Notes: generated from the letters alone by a model not told the origin. A stretch of DNA of 32,000 bases from Candidatus Heimdallarchaeota archaeon (GCA_030149205.1 JASBSB010000004.1:120001-152000); one strand, 5' to 3'; positions 3,156 to 26,303 are shown, numbered from the stretch's first letter. Numbers and translations are program-made.

Positions 3156-4361
3156 TTGACTAAAAATATGAGACAACAGCTCACCCTGATATTAAGTATC
3201 CAAGTAATGATAATAATGACTGGATTCGGTATTGTGTTTCCTATCATGCCAAAATACTTAGAGCATTTCAATGGTACGGTCTTCGACTTAGGGGTTATGT
3301 CTGCGATGTGGGCTGTAAGTGCATTCATTACTTCACCTATAATGGGTTATCTAATTGATAAGATTGGGGCAAAATACGTGATTATTCTGAATTTAGTAGG
3401 ATTTGCCCTCGTTAACTTTTTATTTGCTTTTGCCCAAAATGTAACACATCTGATTATCCTTAGAACCATTGAAGGCGGAATATCCTCAGGGGTTATGCCC
3501 GCTGCGATAACATTGGTTTCATTTTATAGCTCTGAAGAAACACGCTCTCGCCATATTGGGTACGTGAGTGCAGGAAGTTCAATAGGAATAATAATTGGAC
3601 CTGTTATAGGTGGGGTATTGCTGGAATTGTATTCATTTACCGCACCTTTCATGTTTTCCGGTGCATTAGGCTTACTGGGGGCAGTTTTTGCAATATTGTA
3701 TGTACCAAATAAGAAAGGTGATGGGATTGAAGAAAAATCATTACTTTCAATTTCGACCTTTGACAAACTCCCAAAACCAAGTTATGCATTCACCTTGTTC
3801 TTGTTTGTTAATTTGACAAGCGCCTTAAGTTGGATGTTAATTGAACCGGGTTTTTCATTTTACATTTATAATGTACTCCTGTTGACTCCGATTGATTTTG
3901 CAATTTTTGTTTCAACATATGGACTATCATTAGCATTATTTCAAATTTTATTAGGTGGACTCTCAGACTCCTACGGGAGGAAACCTATTATTTTTATCGG
4001 GTTAGTGCTTAATGGGTTGTTTTATATCCTTATGATTTATTCAACAAATTTGATTGCTCTAGTGCTATCATCAATTGTTGCTGGTGTAGCATTGGGGATG
4101 ATGAGTCCTGCATTGAACGCTTGGATCACAGAGTCTATAGAGCCTGAAAACAGAGGATTCGTTTTAGGACTGACAAATTCTTCGATTGCCTTTGCACAAA
4201 TTATCGGTCCGTTGATTGGAAGTTATTACTATGACTTGTATGGCTCAACTGTTATGATCTCATTATTCATTGTGGGTTCATTAATCTCTTTGATAGGAGC
4301 TCTGGTGGTTATTCCTACGAAACTGAAAACTCAACCATTAAGTACCGAATTAATTACTTGA
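3156..4361 (+). CDS. MFS transporter (TetA/DHA1-like)
   Basis: About 12 hydrophobic helices; motif A in both halves (GYLIDKIGAK, GGLSDSYGRKP); GIIIGPVIGG. Likely start is ATG 3168. Confidence 0.9.
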   Translation: MTKNMRQQLTLILSIQVMIIMTGFGIVFPIMPKYLEHFNGTVFDLGVMSAMWAVSAFITSPIMGYLIDKIGAKYVIILNLVGFALVNFLFAFAQNVTHLIILRTIEGGISSGVMPAAITLVSFYSSEETRSRHIGYVSAGSSIGIIIGPVIGGVLLELYSFTAPFMFSGALGLLGAVFAILYVPNKKGDGIEEKSLLSISTFDKLPKPSYAFTLFLFVNLTSALSWMLIEPGFSFYIYNVLLLTPIDFAIFVSTYGLSLALFQILLGGLSDSYGRKPIIFIGLVLNGLFYILMIYSTNLIALVLSSIVAGVALGMMSPALNAWITESIEPENRGFVLGLTNSSIAFAQIIGPLIGSYYYDLYGSTVMISLFIVGSLISLIGALVVIPTKLKTQPLSTELIT

Positions 4362-13091: not shown

Positions 13092-13802
13092 ATGGATCAA
13101 ATAGACGAAATGTATCGAATTTTCAAAAACGCAAAGCAAAAGGAATTTTTTGGTGAGTTGCAGGCTGCGATTCAACTCTATCTAGATGCTGCAAGTTATG
13201 CCCTTAACATTTACAAACAAGATCAAACAGCAAATAAAAAGTTCGAAAGTCTAGCAATTAAGATAGTTTCTCATGTTAAACAGGTGAAATCTGAGATTAA
13301 ATCACAAAACAACTCAGTTCTCCAATTTTTGGATTCAGATTTCCCGCCACCTCCTCAAAGTGATCAACTCAGTAGCACAGAAGATGACAAAATCACAGAG
13401 ATAAGTTCAATAGACCAATTACTTCTTATTTCTAAGTTTGGTTCACCAATTTTAAGTTATAATTTTAAAGCTGTTGACTCAATGAACCCCCTCTATGGAA
13501 ATGAGGTGCTGTTTTCAGGAGCAATGTCCGCAATTTATTCTATTATTCAAGAGACCATCAAAAGTGATATCCAAAAAATTAGTTTAGATGGAAAAAACAT
13601 CTTGATTCAAAAATCTGATGATCTTTTTTTCATATTGATATCAGATGCTGAAGAGGACACATTTAAAGAAAAAATAACAACTTTTGCAGATTCATTTCTT
13701 AACAAGTTTGATAAAAAGATCTCATCAGCACTAAAGAACGGTGAGATGATCTCAGATGATAAAGAATGTATAGAATTTATACATACTAACCTCGGATTTT
13801 AA
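13092..13802 (+). CDS. MIT-like domain + longin-like domain fusion protein
   Basis: Residues ~3-70 fit a three-helix MIT pattern (AKQKEFFGELQAAIQLYLDAASYAL); Pro/acidic linker; C-terminal half fits the Asgard longin-like pattern (LLLISKFGSPILSYNF...LFSGAMSAI...IQKISL...LFFILIS). Confidence 0.6.
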   Translation: MDQIDEMYRIFKNAKQKEFFGELQAAIQLYLDAASYALNIYKQDQTANKKFESLAIKIVSHVKQVKSEIKSQNNSVLQFLDSDFPPPPQSDQLSSTEDDKITEISSIDQLLLISKFGSPILSYNFKAVDSMNPLYGNEVLFSGAMSAIYSIIQETIKSDIQKISLDGKNILIQKSDDLFFILISDAEEDTFKEKITTFADSFLNKFDKKISSALKNGEMISDDKECIEFIHTNLGF

Positions 13803-13856: not shown

Positions 13857-14447
13857 GTGAGTTTTCCTTATCCATATCCTTTAGGACTCCCAAAAGGAAC
13901 TGTAAGAGCAACAATTACACTTGCTTTCACAATAGATCTAATCTTTCTAACGCTAAATTCTGAGACCACGGCCAATCTGGTCTCTCCATTGGTATTAGTT
14001 GCTTTAACCTTTTATTTTGGTGGAAGAATGAGGATAAATCCCTCCATCATAGTTCCAAAAGCTCCAGCTGCCGAACGAGCGTGGGGACTTCCTGCTGGAA
14101 CTATTCGATCTTTATTGATTTTTCTCTTTGGGGCGTTCACAGTTTACCTGATTTATGAACGTAGAACACTCCCCAGTTATATTCTGGATATCTTTAATAT
14201 AATATTCGGGTATTTAATTGGATTAATCTTTTTAAAAATCAAGACATGGTACAGGAGGAGAAAAAACAGTGAAATTACTACTAGCCATATAGGTCCATTG
14301 GATCACCTTGTGTCTTTATTAGCCCTTTCAATTTCTGGTACCACTATTTATATTTTGACAGCTACACCTACAGTAAGTTATATCCTCCTTGTTGCTAATA
14401 TCGCCTCAATAACATTAGGGTTTTACTTTGGTGGAAGATCAACTTAA
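13857..14447 (+). CDS. Membrane protein with internal two-helix repeats
   Basis: About 6 TM; repeated LGLPKGTVRA / WGLPAGTIRS and TFYFGGR / GYLIG / GFYFGGR motifs. Confidence 0.75.
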   Translation: MSFPYPYPLGLPKGTVRATITLAFTIDLIFLTLNSETTANLVSPLVLVALTFYFGGRMRINPSIIVPKAPAAERAWGLPAGTIRSLLIFLFGAFTVYLIYERRTLPSYILDIFNIIFGYLIGLIFLKIKTWYRRRKNSEITTSHIGPLDHLVSLLALSISGTTIYILTATPTVSYILLVANIASITLGFYFGGRST

Positions 14448-19228: not shown

Positions 19229-20176
19229 TCAACCCATCAGATTCTGATATAAATTTTCTAAATCTTCATCGGAAGAAACTATCAGATCAACATCATTGAG
19301 TTCTTCAGGAGTTAAACTAAAAGTACCTTGTCCTCCAATGGCGATTTGAACATGATCTCCAAGGTTTTCATGGATAAACTTTACCTGCTTAATCAATGTT
19401 GATGAATACAAAGGAGAAACCAGCGAAAAAAATATCCACACTGGAGTCGTATTGATAATTTTCTTTAGAAAAGTCAAGAAATCTTCTGTGGGGACTTTAT
19501 ACCCAAGGTTAATGATTTGGTAGAAAGGATTAAATAAAAATTCTAGAAATATTAAAGGAAGAACATGTTCTTCACCTTCAGCAGGAACTAGGACTATTGT
19601 ACCTCTTTCTTTTTCCTTCGTTTGCTGAGCAATCAAATAACGAAGGTAAGTTTCAATTCTGTAAGATATTATGTGCTCCTCAGAAATTGTCAAAGTACCA
19701 GTTGACCAATCTGTTCCAACTTTCCTCATCAGAGGGGTCATTAGTCTTAAAATTAATTGAGTATCAGTAAGACCAAATGAATTGACAGTTTTGTCTAAGT
19801 AAAAATTGGAATAGCTGTTATCGAGCAAAAGTTTAGTTAGACCTTCTAGGTCATCTGCATTAAGAACTTTAGTTTTGTTTACCTTTGGCTTTGAGGGTGG
19901 TTGCTTTTCATCAGCCCTAAAGTATTGCTCAACAATTGAATCTCCGACTAATGTGATTACAGTGTATCTTCCCCTTCTTAAATGTCTCTTTTCAACATTT
20001 ATAACCCTTTTAAGCTTGAGTTCCTTCATTGCGTTTGAAATTGTGCTAGATTTTAATCCATACTCGTCTCTGAACTCTGAAATTGGAACCTCTCTTCCCC
20101 GATTCAATTTAAGATGTCTTAAAATCACCTCTTTTGCTGAAAGTTTTTCTATGTTTTGAATTTTATTGTTCAACAT
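19229..20176 (-). CDS. Winged-HTH + cobalamin-binding transcriptional regulator, CarH-like
   Basis: N-terminal ~78 aa wHTH (ISEFRDEYGLKSSTISNAMKELK...RGRYTVI); B12 cap with W157-x9-E167-H168; Rossmann domain with E202-x-H204, NLG and GG; 20 bp downstream of crtB. Confidence 0.8.
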   Translation of the reverse strand: MLNNKIQNIEKLSAKEVILRHLKLNRGREVPISEFRDEYGLKSSTISNAMKELKLKRVINVEKRHLRRGRYTVITLVGDSIVEQYFRADEKQPPSKPKVNKTKVLNADDLEGLTKLLLDNSYSNFYLDKTVNSFGLTDTQLILRLMTPLMRKVGTDWSTGTLTISEEHIISYRIETYLRYLIAQQTKEKERGTIVLVPAEGEEHVLPLIFLEFLFNPFYQIINLGYKVPTEDFLTFLKKIINTTPVWIFFSLVSPLYSSTLIKQVKFIHENLGDHVQIAIGGQGTFSLTPEELNDVDLIVSSDEDLENLYQNLMG

Positions 20177-20185
20177 TTTATCATC

Positions 20186-20199
20186 CTGTTCATGAACTA
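20186..20199. promoter_or_regulatory. Candidate operator, copy 1 (CTGTTCATGAACTA)
   Basis: 12/14 match to the palindrome TAGTTCATGAACTA with a perfect 10-bp core; lies at the crtB stop, immediately upstream of the SD-like AGGATGA of the B12 regulator. Confidence 0.55.
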
Positions 20200-21207
20200 A
20201 AAAGGATTGTTCACAGCTGTCAACGATTGTAAGTTATGACAGCTAAAAACCTCAATTGGCTTCTCCTTTATATTGATCTTGAGTTTCAGGGCTATTGCAA
20301 TTTTTCGAATCTTTGATACGACTACCCTCTTTTTTAATACCGGGTAGTTTTCTCTTTGGCTTTGAAGCACGATCTCCCTGTAAACCTTTCCAGCAAGAAT
20401 TAAAGGATAATGAGCATACTCAGGCAGATGATAGATTGAGTACATAGAATCTTCGTACATCTGAAGAACGAGTTTTGATAAGTATTTCATAAACCCTGTA
20501 AAGTTCTCCTCATATTCATTTCCCTCTATTAGTTCGGCTATGTTGTGAATTCCAAAGGAACTAAGCATTTCTTTTGGTAAATATATCCTACCATTGTCAT
20601 AATCCTCTTTAACATCTCTGAGAATGTTTGTAAGTTGCATTGCCTCACCTAATAGCTTTGCTTTTCTTAAAATTTTTTCATTTGGGTTTTTCATTATTAA
20701 GTGTGTCATTATACAACCCACCGTCCCAGCTACAGAATAAGCATATTCTTGAAGTTCCTGGAAGGTATTAAACTGTGTCATCTCCAGGTCATTCTTCATT
20801 CCTGAGATCATGTCTCTGAAATAATGAATTGGTATTTTTGAGCTTCTAATTGTGTTTTGTACTAATCTTAGAATGGGGTGATTAGGGATAAATGAGGACA
20901 GGTTATTGAGGAAAAAATCAAGTTCAGATAAGTATTGGTATTTTTTAGATTTTTCTAGCTCAATTGAGTCAGTTATATCATCTAAGATCCTCAAGAATGA
21001 ATAGATTACCTGAACCTTCATGTTAACATCTTCAGGAAAGAACTTTGATGCAAAAGAAAAAGATTTGGCCTTTATATTCATTATATCATAACAATATTTC
21101 CTAGCGACCTCTTCCCCTTTGTTCATGTTTACAATTGGATACATTTCAAATAGGTAATGCTCTAGATTAGATAATTCTGTATTGAGCAGTAAATCATAAT
21201 AGTTCAT
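20197..21207 (-). CDS. crtB: Phytoene synthase
   Basis: SFSFASKFFP, ILDDITD (DDxxD), YAYSVAGTVG, LGEAMQLTNILRDVKEDYDNGRIYLP. Confidence 0.95.
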   Translation of the reverse strand: MNYYDLLLNTELSNLEHYLFEMYPIVNMNKGEEVARKYCYDIMNIKAKSFSFASKFFPEDVNMKVQVIYSFLRILDDITDSIELEKSKKYQYLSELDFFLNNLSSFIPNHPILRLVQNTIRSSKIPIHYFRDMISGMKNDLEMTQFNTFQELQEYAYSVAGTVGCIMTHLIMKNPNEKILRKAKLLGEAMQLTNILRDVKEDYDNGRIYLPKEMLSSFGIHNIAELIEGNEYEENFTGFMKYLSKLVLQMYEDSMYSIYHLPEYAHYPLILAGKVYREIVLQSQRENYPVLKKRVVVSKIRKIAIALKLKINIKEKPIEVFSCHNLQSLTAVNNPF

Positions 21208-21213
21208 GAATAA
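21200..21213. promoter_or_regulatory. Candidate operator, copy 2 (TAGTTCATGAATAA)
   Basis: 12/14 match to the palindrome; overlaps the crtB start codon. Confidence 0.55.
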
Positions 21214-21218
21214 TTGAA

Positions 21219-21232
21219 TAGTTCATAAACTT
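21219..21232. promoter_or_regulatory. Candidate operator, copy 3 (TAGTTCATAAACTT)
   Basis: 12/14 match to the palindrome; 19 bp from copy 2 and adjacent to the TATA element. Confidence 0.55.
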
Positions 21233-21235
21233 GTA

Positions 21236-21243
21236 TTTATATA
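21236..21243. promoter_or_regulatory. Probable bidirectional TATA box for crtB and crtI
   Basis: TTTATATA on + and TATATAAA on -; ends 23 bp before the crtI ATG (21266) and 29 bp from the crtB ATG (21207), in a 58-bp divergent gap. Confidence 0.55.
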
Positions 21244-21265
21244 TTAGCTTTTATGACAATCATTA

Positions 21266-22753
21266 ATGATGAAGCAGAAAAAGTCTGTTGTTGTTATCGG
21301 AAGCGGGTTTGGTGGATTAACTACTGCGATTAAGTTATTGAACAAGGGGTTTCAGGTAACTGTTTTAGAGAAAAATGAACAGATAGGTGGAAGAGCTTCA
21401 GTGCTTGAAAAAAACGGGTTTAAGTTTGACATGGGTCCAACAGTAATTACTGTACCAGAAATTTTTAGATCACTTTTTGAAGAATCTGGAAAAAATCTTG
21501 ACAATTATGTAGAACTATTACCAGTTTATCCCTTCTATAGGATTTATTTTGATGATAAAAGTAAATTTGACTATGGTACACCTGAAGACAATATCAGACA
21601 GATTAAAGAGCTAGAACCTGAAGATTTAAACGGTTACAGGCGTATGTTAAAGGATATTGAACCCATTTATAAAAAAGGGTATTTGGAACTTGCTACCAAA
21701 CCATTTTTGACAGTGTTTAGTATGTTAAAGATTGCACCTCTATTGTTTAAGCTCAAGGGCTATTTAACAAATTATCAGTTTGTAAGTAGGTACGTGCAAA
21801 ATAATAAATTAAGGCAGGTTTTCTCTTTTCATCCACTTTTGATTGGAGGAAACCCATTTTCTGTACCCTCAATTTACTCCTTAATTCAATACATAGAGAA
21901 AGAATATGGGATATGGTATCCAAGGGGTGGAACTGGGAGACTTGTGAAGAGTATGGGTCAATTGATTGAAGAGTTAGGAGGGGAGATTAAGCTAAATTCA
22001 GAAGTCGTCAATTTGGAAATTACCGATAAGAGGGTCACAGGGGTCATGATTAAATCTGGTGAAGTGCTTCATCCAGATTTTGTTGTTTCCAATGCCGACG
22101 TTGCAACCACCTACACAAAGTTGATAGACAAAAGATGGAGAAAGAAAAATTCTAATAAGAGATACGAAAAGGCTAAATACAGTATGAGTCTGTTTCTTAT
22201 TTATTTTGGGACGAAGAAGAAATATCCTGAAATGAAACATCACACAATTATCCTCGGGCCAAGATACAAGGGGTTGTTAGAAGATATATTTAAGAAAAAG
22301 ATATTAGCGGATGATTTTTCATCTTATCTACATGTTCCTTCACTAACTGACCCAGAGATGGCTCCAAAAGGGCATGAGGCATTTTATATTCTTGTACCTG
22401 TACCAAATCTGGATGCAGACATCAATTGGAAAGAAATGGGGGCCAAGTTAAAAACAAAGGTCTTAAACTTTCTTGATGAATTCTATTTGGAGGGGCTTCT
22501 TGAAAACCTGGTTGTGGATGAGATCTTTACCCCAAATGACTTTGCTACCAGATATCAATCATACAAAGGCACAGGTTTCAGTTTAGAGCCAACTATGAGA
22601 CAATCTGCTTATTTTCGTCCACATAACAGATCTGAAGATATCACAAATCTATATATCTCTGGAGCTGGAACACATCCTGGGGCTGGATTGCCAGGAGTTG
22701 TAGCCAGTGGCGAGATAACTGCAAATCTGATAGATGAGGATGCACATGCTTAG
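21266..22753 (+). CDS. crtI: Phytoene desaturase (CrtI family)
   Basis: VIGSGFGG FAD motif, EKNEQIGGRA, FDMGPTVIT, FSFHPLLIGGNPF, GAGTHPGAGLPGV. Confidence 0.96.
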   Translation: MMKQKKSVVVIGSGFGGLTTAIKLLNKGFQVTVLEKNEQIGGRASVLEKNGFKFDMGPTVITVPEIFRSLFEESGKNLDNYVELLPVYPFYRIYFDDKSKFDYGTPEDNIRQIKELEPEDLNGYRRMLKDIEPIYKKGYLELATKPFLTVFSMLKIAPLLFKLKGYLTNYQFVSRYVQNNKLRQVFSFHPLLIGGNPFSVPSIYSLIQYIEKEYGIWYPRGGTGRLVKSMGQLIEELGGEIKLNSEVVNLEITDKRVTGVMIKSGEVLHPDFVVSNADVATTYTKLIDKRWRKKNSNKRYEKAKYSMSLFLIYFGTKKKYPEMKHHTIILGPRYKGLLEDIFKKKILADDFSSYLHVPSLTDPEMAPKGHEAFYILVPVPNLDADINWKEMGAKLKTKVLNFLDEFYLEGLLENLVVDEIFTPNDFATRYQSYKGTGFSLEPTMRQSAYFRPHNRSEDITNLYISGAGTHPGAGLPGVVASGEITANLIDEDAHA

Positions 22754-23549
22754 CTACTCTTTGGTTCTGTTTGTATTCGTGGGGATTCCGACTCTTATCC
22801 TGGTGTTCATTTCCCTTTCAGTCAAAGTATTAAACAAACAGACTTCACTCTATTTATTATCTCTATCTGTTATTGCTGTTTTGTATACTACTCCCTGGGA
22901 CAATTATTTGGTGTATCATTCAGTTTGGTATTACGACCAGAATAAAATCTGGAATGTGTTCATTTGGTTTGTTCCACTGGAAGAATACTTATTTTTTGTA
23001 ATTCAGACATGGTTTACAGGGTTAGTAACGTTGTTACTAATACACAACCAAGATAAAATTAAGAACAACCATGAAATTATTAAAGTACCTAGTGAGTCAA
23101 GGGCAAAATTGACCTGGGTAATTAATGAAGCTGTGAATAATGTTAGAGAACCCAAGGCCATACTTTTAATTTCACTCACAGTTATGTCTAGCCTTTTACT
23201 CTGGCTATTTAAATTTTCGACACTTTTTTACTTTTTATTGATAACTGCTTGGGCTTTGTACCCAATCACTCTTCAGTTGGTTGTGGGGTTCAGATTTATT
23301 GGAAGATACGGGTCTTCCCTTCTTGCGGGGGTAACATTAACTTCACTCTATCTTTGTATAGTTGATTATATCTCAATAAACGATAAAGTTTGGGAAATCA
23401 ACAAGTTATACACAATAAATGGTTTAGGAGTCGGGGTACTTCCATTTGAAGAGATCTGGTTTTTCATTATTACAAATGTACTTGTCTCACTTGGAATCAT
23501 TCTGTTCTCTGTTATTGGGGGAATATCTGAATCTGTATCTGTCGATTAG
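22734..23549 (+). CDS. crtY: Membrane-type lycopene cyclase with two cyclase domains (CrtYcd-like)
   Basis: Two repeats with TTPWDNYLV..VWYY / PLEEYLFF and DYISINDKVWEI / PFEEIWFF. Likely start is ATG 22746, overlapping the crtI stop. Confidence 0.85.
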   Translation: MRMHMLSYSLVLFVFVGIPTLILVFISLSVKVLNKQTSLYLLSLSVIAVLYTTPWDNYLVYHSVWYYDQNKIWNVFIWFVPLEEYLFFVIQTWFTGLVTLLLIHNQDKIKNNHEIIKVPSESRAKLTWVINEAVNNVREPKAILLISLTVMSSLLLWLFKFSTLFYFLLITAWALYPITLQLVVGFRFIGRYGSSLLAGVTLTSLYLCIVDYISINDKVWEINKLYTINGLGVGVLPFEEIWFFIITNVLVSLGIILFSVIGGISESVSVD

Positions 23550-24279
23550 TGAGTCTATTCGTTACTAACCTACAGGACACTAAACTTTAACATAATATTG
23601 AAAATCTACTGAGATATTGATACAGTCGGTTGCATAATACGGTCTCTGTGATTTTGTTATCAAATGGAGGTTATCAGATCAAGGACCCTCAATATACAAT
23701 ATCTCATTTTAAACACATGATACACTATACATGTTGCATAATATGTAATACATAATAATTATCACTCAATACATAATACACAATACATGGTGTAATGCAT
23801 GATGTGTAAAGCATGATGTACCAAATAGGGATTACTATGCACAGTAGTTGCTTCCAATTTTGATTTGGCATCCTTATTTTGCTCTATATCGCTGTGAATT
23901 ATATATTCGGTAATTGTCCATATAAGATCATGTTAGAATATAATATATAATACACAATGCACTATACATACTTGGTAACATGCATGTTCGTTCATGCATG
24001 GTGCACGATACAGGTTACATAATGCAGCATGCTCTGACTTTATTGCAGATTATTCAATTACCGTCAGTACAATTAGGTTCCAAATCCTTTAATGTTCGGA
24101 GGAACTGGATCACTAATTAGTATATTTTAATGTATTAAATCGAAAATCAACGGTTAATGGAAACTATAAGTAAATGTATAGAACAGAGGTAACTGTAATG
24201 GACTTGAAGTTAATAGAATCTATTTGGTTTAATTTCTAGGACTAAAAAATTTGTTTAAAGGTTATTCTGGCAAGAAGGC
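23550..24279. other. 730-bp non-coding island with short palindromes and dispersed direct repeats
   Basis: No ORF in the track; dense CATG/TGCA/ATACA motifs; AACATGCATGTT palindrome at 23977-23988; ATAATACACAAT at 23773 and 23947; CACTATACAT at 23723 and 23960. Confidence 0.6.
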
Positions 24280-25604: not shown

Positions 25605-26303
25605 TTATTGAAATGAACTTTCATCAAAACCAGAATCTAAGTTTTGACTGTTGATAGATAGATATGAATAGATCTTTCTCTCCTTAAACCATTTGCTTGC
25701 TTCATCCACCTTTGTATAGAGCTCATCCAGCTCATTCAAAAAGTTTGAAATTTCAAGTGCAATCGATCCAAAATTGGTTTGTTCTCTTATTTCCTTTGAC
25801 CACCCACGTTTTTCCTCCTCTGGTAATTCGTCAGCAGCAAAGGGTATGAATTCAATTTCAAATGAATTTTCAATCTGTCCAGTCAGCATAAAAAGTGGTT
25901 TTTCATTTTCTGAATCCGTTTCAACCTTAACACTCATATCATTCCACTGAGTGATCAAAAATTCTTCTGCCTGAACAAATTTCCTGGTTACATATTCAAG
26001 TTCCACATCCATCTCCATTTCTAGTTTATATGTTAGATAGGAGATTCCTTTAGTGTTGTAACCGATCTGTTTTTGGACATTAATTGTTAGTTCAAAGGGA
26101 AACAATGAATTGACCAAAATGATGTTAAATTCCGCTTGATCTGGGGTTATTGAGATGTTATCCAATTGATAGTTGTCTAACCATTCAAATTTCTTAGCAT
26201 TTCTAAAAAAATAGTTTGCAATTGATATTACATAGTCCTTAGGCTCTGATAACTCATAACCTAGCCCTCCAAAAATTTCATCAGTTAATGTCGTAACATC
26301 CAA
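25605..26303 (-). CDS. Hypothetical acidic protein
   Basis: 232-aa ORF with TTG start that fills the gap between tpiA and the C45 peptidase; no motif recognised. Confidence 0.65.
   Translation of the reverse strand: MDVTTLTDEIFGGLGYELSEPKDYVISIANYFFRNAKKFEWLDNYQLDNISITPDQAEFNIILVNSLFPFELTINVQKQIGYNTKGISYLTYKLEMEMDVELEYVTRKFVQAEEFLITQWNDMSVKVETDSENEKPLFMLTGQIENSFEIEFIPFAADELPEEEKRGWSKEIREQTNFGSIALEISNFLNELDELYTKVDEASKWFKERKIYSYLSINSQNLDSGFDESSFQ

Follow-up and report, generated by a model that had tools for sequence, protein, structure and literature searches.

What the gene directly downstream of crtB contributes to an archaeal carotenoid cluster is the question raised by a stretch of 32,000 nucleotides from a Candidatus Heimdallarchaeota archaeon (JASBSB010000004.1:120001-152000; hereafter, the window). 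The gene (19229-20176, minus strand) encodes a protein of 315 aa made up of a winged helix, a linker, a four-helix bundle and a Rossmann B12-binding domain. The reading that we regard as rather probable is that of a one-component, adenosylcobalamin (AdoCbl)-dependent photoreceptor repressor, which would be released by light and would control both the crtB-regulator and the crtI-cyclase gene pairs. As a one-component candidate the system is complete, comprising a sensor, a DNA-binding head, a candidate operator and target genes, together with a mode of repression predicted for an archaeal promoter.

The initial annotation placed the regulator 20 bp after crtB, inside a carotenoid cluster, and this was confirmed by the coordinates and by Pfam. 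The phytoene synthase gene crtB (20197-21207, minus strand; PF00494, E 1.6e-56) is the first gene of the crtB-regulator pair and is separated by a 20-bp spacer from the ATG of the regulator (20176) on the same strand. Divergent from crtB is the phytoene desaturase gene crtI (21266-22753, plus strand; PF01593, E 2.1e-36), the end of which overlaps by 20 nt with a gene for a lycopene-cyclase-like membrane protein (22734-23549, plus strand; weak PF18916 match, E 0.0037). A cyclase-like gene also follows crtI in two related loci (L003 and L008) and in the P0005 contig. As the 20-bp gap leaves no space for a promoter of its own, the regulator gene is probably co-transcribed with crtB and would hence be autoregulated. 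Downstream of the cyclase gene, the window contains 730 bp (23550-24279) without an ORF of at least 60 aa, located between convergent genes. Elsewhere in the window, three ORFs of 196-236 aa (25605-26303, minus strand; 13092-13802 and 13857-14447, plus strand) had no Pfam match at E 0.01.

A search for the same combination of winged helix and B12-binding domains beside crt genes in other archaea, proposed at the outset, proved productive: crtB was found directly upstream of the regulator and on the same strand in all 16 regulator-positive species-representative genomes, and likewise in nine of ten loci comprising the window and nine metagenomic or MAG loci. In related loci crtI is mostly divergent; in L024 it is located downstream on the same strand. 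Within the two genera that harbour the regulator, it was present in 16 of 17 crtB-positive genomes and in none of the nine crtB-negative ones. Other Asgard families carry crtB without the regulator, and the system is therefore lineage-specific. Of the family members, P0013 (locus L009) alone lacks crt genes in its neighbourhood. No CarS-like partner gene was conserved beside the regulator in the window and the nine metagenomic or MAG loci.

An exhaustive protein search, covering 1.84 billion representatives, returned only 11 proteins (query included) with E < 1e-30 and few more to about 1e-28; short fragments of the family reached about 1e-11, and generic cobalamin-domain regulators followed from about 1e-10. 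No source gives the members a name more specific than 'HTH domain-containing', 'B12-binding domain-containing' or 'hypothetical', and they derive from MAGs of Promethearchaeota, Odinarchaeota and Thorarchaeota, with one labelled Methanobacteriota. These source names and a search of the window's phylum agree with the Asgard-like host suspected initially. In that phylum, full-length members (E < 1e-89) were detected in 16 of 400 genomes, all from two genera, namely in two of four genomes of the window's genus and in 14 of 22 genomes of a same-class genus belonging to another family.

The cobalamin module and its predicted dimer

A scripted residue count of the regulator gave W157, S158, E167, H168, E202-E203-H204 and V205-L206-P207, reproducing the W157-x9-E167-H168 and E202-x-H204 motifs that had been claimed for it, along with the His-His spacing of 36 (H168-H204). 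The first of these motifs is situated in a B12-binding_2-like four-helix-bundle cap (19622-19852, minus strand; aa 109-185) which carries G154-x-x-W157 and E167-H168, and the second in the Rossmann B12-binding domain (19232-19606, minus strand; aa 191-315), with G201-E-E-H204, containing the putative lower axial His, and G225-x-x-x-P229. Upstream of the cap is a flexible linker (19853-19945, minus strand; aa 78-108; pLDDT 61-77) without regular secondary structure, the length of which differs among the members of a 15-member family alignment. In this alignment, where members are 27-39% identical to the regulator of the window, G154, W157, E167, H168 and H204 are invariant, which argues that the cap and ligand motifs did not arise by chance; position 202 is either E or D. 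Aligned directly, W157, S158, E167, H168 and H204 of the regulator correspond to W131, H132, E141, H142 and H177 of Thermus CarH (TtCarH) and to the matching residues of CtMerR.

Pfam searches with the regulator alone left both B12 domains below threshold (21.5 versus 23 bits and 15 versus 32.1 bits) and were silent on the head. Over the family alignment, B12-binding_2 (PF02607) was recognised in 14 of 15 members and B12-binding (PF02310) in 13 of 15, with a best E-value of 1.3e-18. The AlphaFold model computed on the family alignment (pLDDT 86.7, pTM 0.73) had as its top Foldseek matches in the PDB the photocobilins (8j2w, 8j2x and 8j2y), CtMerR (8jbs and 8jbt) and TtCarH (5c8d, 5c8a and 8c76), with E-values from 1e-9 to 1e-8 (about 2e-9 to 4e-9 for TtCarH 5c8d and 8c76). 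B12 photoreceptors occupied the first 11 ranks by a modest margin, as the enzyme-type corrinoid proteins MttC and MetH came next with similar E-values, and TM-scores were lower for MttC. In a profile search of PDB sequences, a photocobilin was the best match (6.9e-12) and AerR a distant one (E 5.6e-4).

Light-responsive cobalamin domains are distinguished by an experimentally validated signature composed of GxxW, EH, GxxH and GxxxP (SignatureFinder, PMC11796333), and all four elements are present in the regulator (G154xxW157, E167H168, G201xxH204 and G225xxxP229). The 94 nearest homologues from outside the family all keep the signature, the W, EH and H204 positions being invariant or conserved in at least 90% of them and G225 and P229 in at least 90%. 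The fold and this signature together bear out the proposal of a CarH-like sensor module. Two further features had been singled out as unusual, the HVLP sequence in place of HxxG and Ser158 at the position of the His that serves bis-His ligation in TtCarH. Both are indeed present; neither is exceptional. The validated photocobilin 8j2w likewise has HxxP (as H-A-L-P), and among photoreceptors that have been validated, the position of TtCarH His132 is occupied by Arg, Gln or Tyr (PMC11796333). We considered HVLP and Ser158 as arguments against photoreception and rejected them, since validated photoreceptors share such variants (8j2w alignment; PMC11796333). With Ser in place of the bis-His ligation residue, the light state of the regulator must nevertheless differ from that of TtCarH, as it does in CtMerR. 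From these sequence features, we infer that the regulator probably binds cobalamin and responds to light.

Two copies of the regulator were predicted to form a homodimer with a score of 0.76, the best of three controls scoring 0.00; three runs shared at least 67% of contacts, with a pLDDT of the partner chain of at least 79. This mark was reached by 20 of 30 proteins whose structures are pairs of one chain and by one of 23 solved as single chains, counts that hold only approximately here because a custom alignment was used. In the modelled interface, which is symmetric, each chain packs its EH helix (163-187) on the GxxxP loop (220-236) of its partner. A head-to-tail arrangement has been described for CtMerR and CarH (PMC11796333), and the interface predicted for the regulator is likewise head-to-tail and CarH-like. 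As CarH-type dimers have already been solved, the favourable score may reflect likeness to these structures and not independent evidence.

The winged-helix head and the candidate operator

According to the initial annotation, the N-terminus of the protein is a winged helix-turn-helix and not a MerR domain, and this view held. HTH_11, MarR_2, HTH_27 and TrmB (and also MarR) were matched by Pfam in 5-9 of the 15 family members, MerR in none of the 15, and Foldseek matches to the head were winged-helix regulators only. The domain (19946-20149, minus strand; aa 10-77) was modelled separately as residues 1-95 (pLDDT 84.9) and has a helix-helix-helix-wing topology, with helices at 14-24, 32-39 and 43-55 and strands at 59-65 and 70-76. 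Its structural matches comprised Stf76, Phr, PadR, ArsR/SmtB, MarR and AbfR2, with weak E-values of 4e-3 to 5e-2. The recognition helix (aa 43-55) contains S47, N48, A49 and K51, all invariant in the family, and in the wing (aa 59-76) G69 and T72 are invariant and R63, R64 and Y71 at least 90% conserved. The basic wing sequence KRHLRRGRY, noticed at the first reading, is found at residues 63-71 and maps onto the beta-hairpin of the model (strands 59-66 and 70-76).

A spacer of 58 bp separates the divergently oriented crtB and crtI genes and contains an A/T-rich, TATA-like element (TATTTATATATTA, 21234-21246), the distance of which to the ATG of crtI is approximately 25 nt and to that of crtB 34 nt. 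Four base pairs from this element is a candidate operator palindrome, P1 (TAGTTCATAAACTT, 21219-21232; core 21222-21229, one mismatch), and 19 bp from P1 is a second, P2 (TAGTTCATGAATAA, 21200-21213; core 21203-21210), which overlaps the ATG of crtB (21205-21207). Read in the direction of crtB, the window thus presents TAATATATAAATA, CAAG, TTTATGAA, 11 bp and TTCATGAA. In relatives the layout is constant, a BRE/TATA-like element (e.g. cGAAAnaTATTTAAAT) being followed after 4-5 bp by palindrome 1 and, after a further 10-11 bp, by palindrome 2, with the crtB start 0-70 bp downstream of the latter. The geometry of the spacer points to transcripts that are leaderless or have short leaders, and perhaps to one bidirectional core promoter for both genes; the TATA-like element may serve both directions. 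A third palindrome (CTGTTCATGAACTA, 20186-20199; core 20189-20196) spans the crtB stop, 13 bp before the regulator ATG, and has counterparts, mostly imperfect, between crtB and the regulator gene elsewhere in the family; it could act as a roadblock or as a fine-tuning site. Loci with long crtI-crtB spacers have additional palindromes near crtI.

Seventeen exact copies of TTCATGAA are present in the window and ten further loci, about 122 kb in all, and 16 of these sites fall in crtI-crtB spacers, in crtB-regulator spacers or upstream of the crt-less regulator gene. In an independent set of loci, from 14 species genomes, 25 of 29 exact sites are located between -200 and +20 relative to crtB, an interval that makes up 5.5% of the sequence. 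The palindrome pair itself, 18-19 bp from centre to centre, was present in 14 of 14 loci, which are kin and not independent of one another, so that nominal P values exaggerate the significance; with most loci deriving from one genus, the conservation of the operator is partly a matter of shared ancestry. The core motif is not rare, with 136 occurrences in the 3.3-Mb genome of the window, but the pair is almost unique there: a position-weight scan for pairs identified five, the crtB promoter having by far the highest score (17.4 + 11.5 bits) and the others at most 11.3. Five relatives (about 23 Mb) contained five exact pairs, four of them in crtB promoters and one intragenic, and no pair was found in the same sequences with a reversed-pattern control. 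The intragenic pair, which is the second exact one in relative G066, was taken as chance because of its location inside an ORF. The only intergenic candidate in the window's genome besides the crtB promoter is a weak pair, 18 bp apart (C4:809886-809917), 9 bp upstream of a gene for an uncharacterised 225-aa protein, behind which genes for a thioesterase and a methyltransferase are located; the pair may mark a minor target of the regulator or be a chance match, and was not counted as part of a regulon. In L009, a single TTCATGAA (4215-4222) is positioned after a TATA-like element and 44 bp upstream of the start of P0013, and its location upstream of that protein's own gene suggests autoregulation of P0013.

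Archaeal repressors that block recruitment of the polymerase usually bind between the TATA box and the start of transcription, and winged-helix repressors of the Phr and Stf76 type bind downstream of TATA; archaeal activators usually bind upstream of the BRE. The features by which a winged-helix repressor is recognised are found together here, namely the H1-H2-H3-wing fold, the conserved recognition helix and candidate sites downstream of the TATA-like element. On the DNA, one dimer might place one winged helix on each palindrome, or a dimer of dimers might place two. In a subgroup of the family (loci L024-L027; P0009 and P0012), the winged helix is duplicated in tandem in ORFs of 366-396 aa which are accompanied by the same two-palindrome operator, and this mildly favours four heads per operator.

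Proposed mode of action and rival readings

In the dark, the C-terminal module of the regulator would bind adenosylcobalamin, with H204 as the lower ligand of cobalt and with the helical cap (G154xxW157 and E167-H168) shielding the adenosyl group. The protein would assemble into head-to-tail dimers, possibly dimers of dimers, and their winged helices would occupy both TTCATGAA palindromes, spaced 18-19 bp, in the interval from the TATA box to the start of crtB, so blocking recruitment of RNA polymerase at the crtB-regulator operon; in the window, the 58-bp region probably controls the divergent crtI-cyclase operon as well. Light would cleave the Co-C bond, upon which the cap would shift, the oligomer dissociate and DNA binding be lost, allowing the carotenoid genes and the gene of the regulator itself to be transcribed. 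The cofactor could be supplied by a PduO-type adenosyltransferase (E 3.5e-58) encoded in the window's genome.

A cobalamin regulator that reports B12 availability or cellular redox state instead of light, the holo form repressing and the apo or oxidised form not, would also be in keeping with the domain anatomy, the ligand residues and the operator; on balance, we think this unlikely. Many Asgard relatives inhabit sediments, and in the window's genome, which is 93.5% complete, no further gene recognisably related to light turned up. Neither heliorhodopsin nor type-1 rhodopsin nor Blh was found in it (control genomes were silent too), a tblastn search with the heliorhodopsin of a relative gave no match, and the photolyase FAD domain was not detected in searches in which controls worked. 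Independent signs of a lit habitat are therefore missing for the organism of the window. However, the target genes make carotenoids and have no B12-related functions, and none of the residues by which light-responsive cobalamin domains differ from those of enzymes is missing or variable. Heliorhodopsin, furthermore, is encoded in 12 of 14 regulator-positive genomes of the sister genus. Over the phylum it was detected in 132 of 400 genomes and in none of the four from the window's genus, and this distribution makes the case for light stronger for the sister genus than for the organism of the window. In a related MAG, a heliorhodopsin gene (L001:872-1684) was seen about 9 kb from the crtI/crtB/regulator cluster.

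That the repressor is independent of B12, with the cobalamin-type domain as an oligomerisation scaffold and derepression by some other signal or partner, appears to us decidedly improbable. Such a route exists among CarH paralogues, as myxobacterial CarA shows (PMC9304148), and the B12 domains of the regulator scored below the Pfam thresholds; but five invariant cap and ligand residues (G154, W157, E167, H168 and H204) at 27-39% identity are hard to explain without a ligand, and a CarS-like partner is not conserved next door in the window and the nine metagenomic or MAG loci. We give still less credence to a light- or B12-responsive activator or antirepressor resembling AerR: the distant profile match to AerR would suit it, yet the regulator has a DNA-binding domain of its own, and the candidate sites occupy the stretch from TATA to the start of the gene, reaching even the ATG, which is where archaeal repressors bind. 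Least credible of all is an unrelated regulator that merely resides beside crtB while the palindromes serve another factor, against which stand the linkage in 16 of 16 genomes and the co-variation of the regulator with crtB, the palindrome preceding the lone regulator gene in L009, and the pairing of an invariant recognition helix with an invariant operator core.

Known systems and the origin of the family

The light-released repressor that we favour has its closest functional parallel in CarH, or class I LitR (TtCarH, PDB 5C8D/5C8E, and the proteins of Myxococcus xanthus and Bacillus megaterium). Both share the module of four-helix bundle and Rossmann domain, Wx9EH and the lower-ligand His, and CarH/LitR is likewise linked to crt genes, with operators overlapping the promoter and a head-to-tail dimer, which for the regulator is predicted here. 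However, CarH/LitR has a MerR head where the Asgard regulator has a winged helix. Its operator consists of 11-bp direct repeats at a sigma-70-type promoter, in contrast to the pair of 8-bp palindromes, spaced 18-19 bp, that follows an archaeal TATA element in the Asgard case. TtCarH has His132 where the regulator has Ser, and the Asgard host is an archaeon with transcription of the TBP/TFB type. We therefore did not assign the regulator to CarH/LitR: a defining feature, the MerR head, is missing, although the light-domain signature is present.

CtMerR of Chloracidobacterium thermophilum (8JBS/8JBT; PMC11796333), a top fold match, has G153, W156, E166, H167, G201, H204 and P228 at the positions of G154, W157, E167, H168, G201, H204 and P229 of the regulator, and the second His is missing in both; it is, however, a bacterial protein with a MerR head, and its identity to the regulator amounts to 17-19% (Foldseek alignments to 8jbs and 8jbt). 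The photocobilins (SasPcob, 8J2W; AbDPcob, 8J2Y; PMC10979010), which gave the best profile and fold matches to the cobalamin domain and have HxxP in common with it, differ from the regulator in possessing a biliverdin-binding domain and enzyme outputs and in lacking a DNA-binding head. Conversely, archaeal winged-helix repressors such as Pyrococcus Phr (2P4W) and Sulfolobus Stf76 (2MLG) resemble the head of the regulator in fold (structural E 4e-3 to 5e-2) and, unlike it, are devoid of a cobalamin module.

Among the 94 nearest homologues from outside the family, the heads were recognised as MerR in 41, HTH_17 in 13, XRE in 11 and winged helix in one or two. In an unrooted tree of cobalamin domains, the regulator family formed a single clade (SH-aLRT 99), and the N-termini of its nearest neighbours lack both MerR and any other annotation. 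The clade and its neighbours fit a separate assembly of the B12 light module on a winged helix, which on these comparisons is plausible. In a general way, light-responsive cobalamin domains fused to various helix-turn-helix heads are known (PMC11796333), and computational work has predicted photoglobin-cobalamin proteins in archaea (PMC8717448). Our search of the literature found no account of the winged-helix form, of an Asgard example, of linkage to crt genes in archaea or of the two-palindrome operator. To our knowledge, experimental characterisation of B12-based photoreceptors has been confined to bacteria.

We are slightly inclined to regard the regulator as the first photoreceptor transcription factor from Asgard archaea, a B12 switch that would have been built independently of bacterial CarH on an archaeal winged helix and would act through a two-palindrome operator on a eukaryote-like promoter of the TBP/TFB type. 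If this is correct, some Lokiarchaeia-type Asgards sense light and respond to it, light-regulated gene expression would be documented in the archaeal lineage closest to eukaryotes, and the cobalamin light module would have come to serve different DNA-binding heads in separate domains of life. The regulator would further provide a compact, orthogonal green-light optogenetic switch with a short operator for archaeal or eukaryote-like transcription.

Proteins of a different build were observed in five loci from other Asgard families (L028-L030, L032 and L033; e.g. L030:1093-2172). They comprise 350-369 aa, with a helical N-terminus of approximately 170 aa followed by a cobalamin domain that contains GRLW..EH and, in four of five, GE(R/L)HxLG (REQHELG in L033), and they retain most of the light signature. 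Judging by these motifs, they look like photoglobin-cobalamin proteins and as such would give the Asgard archaea a second kind of B12 photoreceptor candidate.
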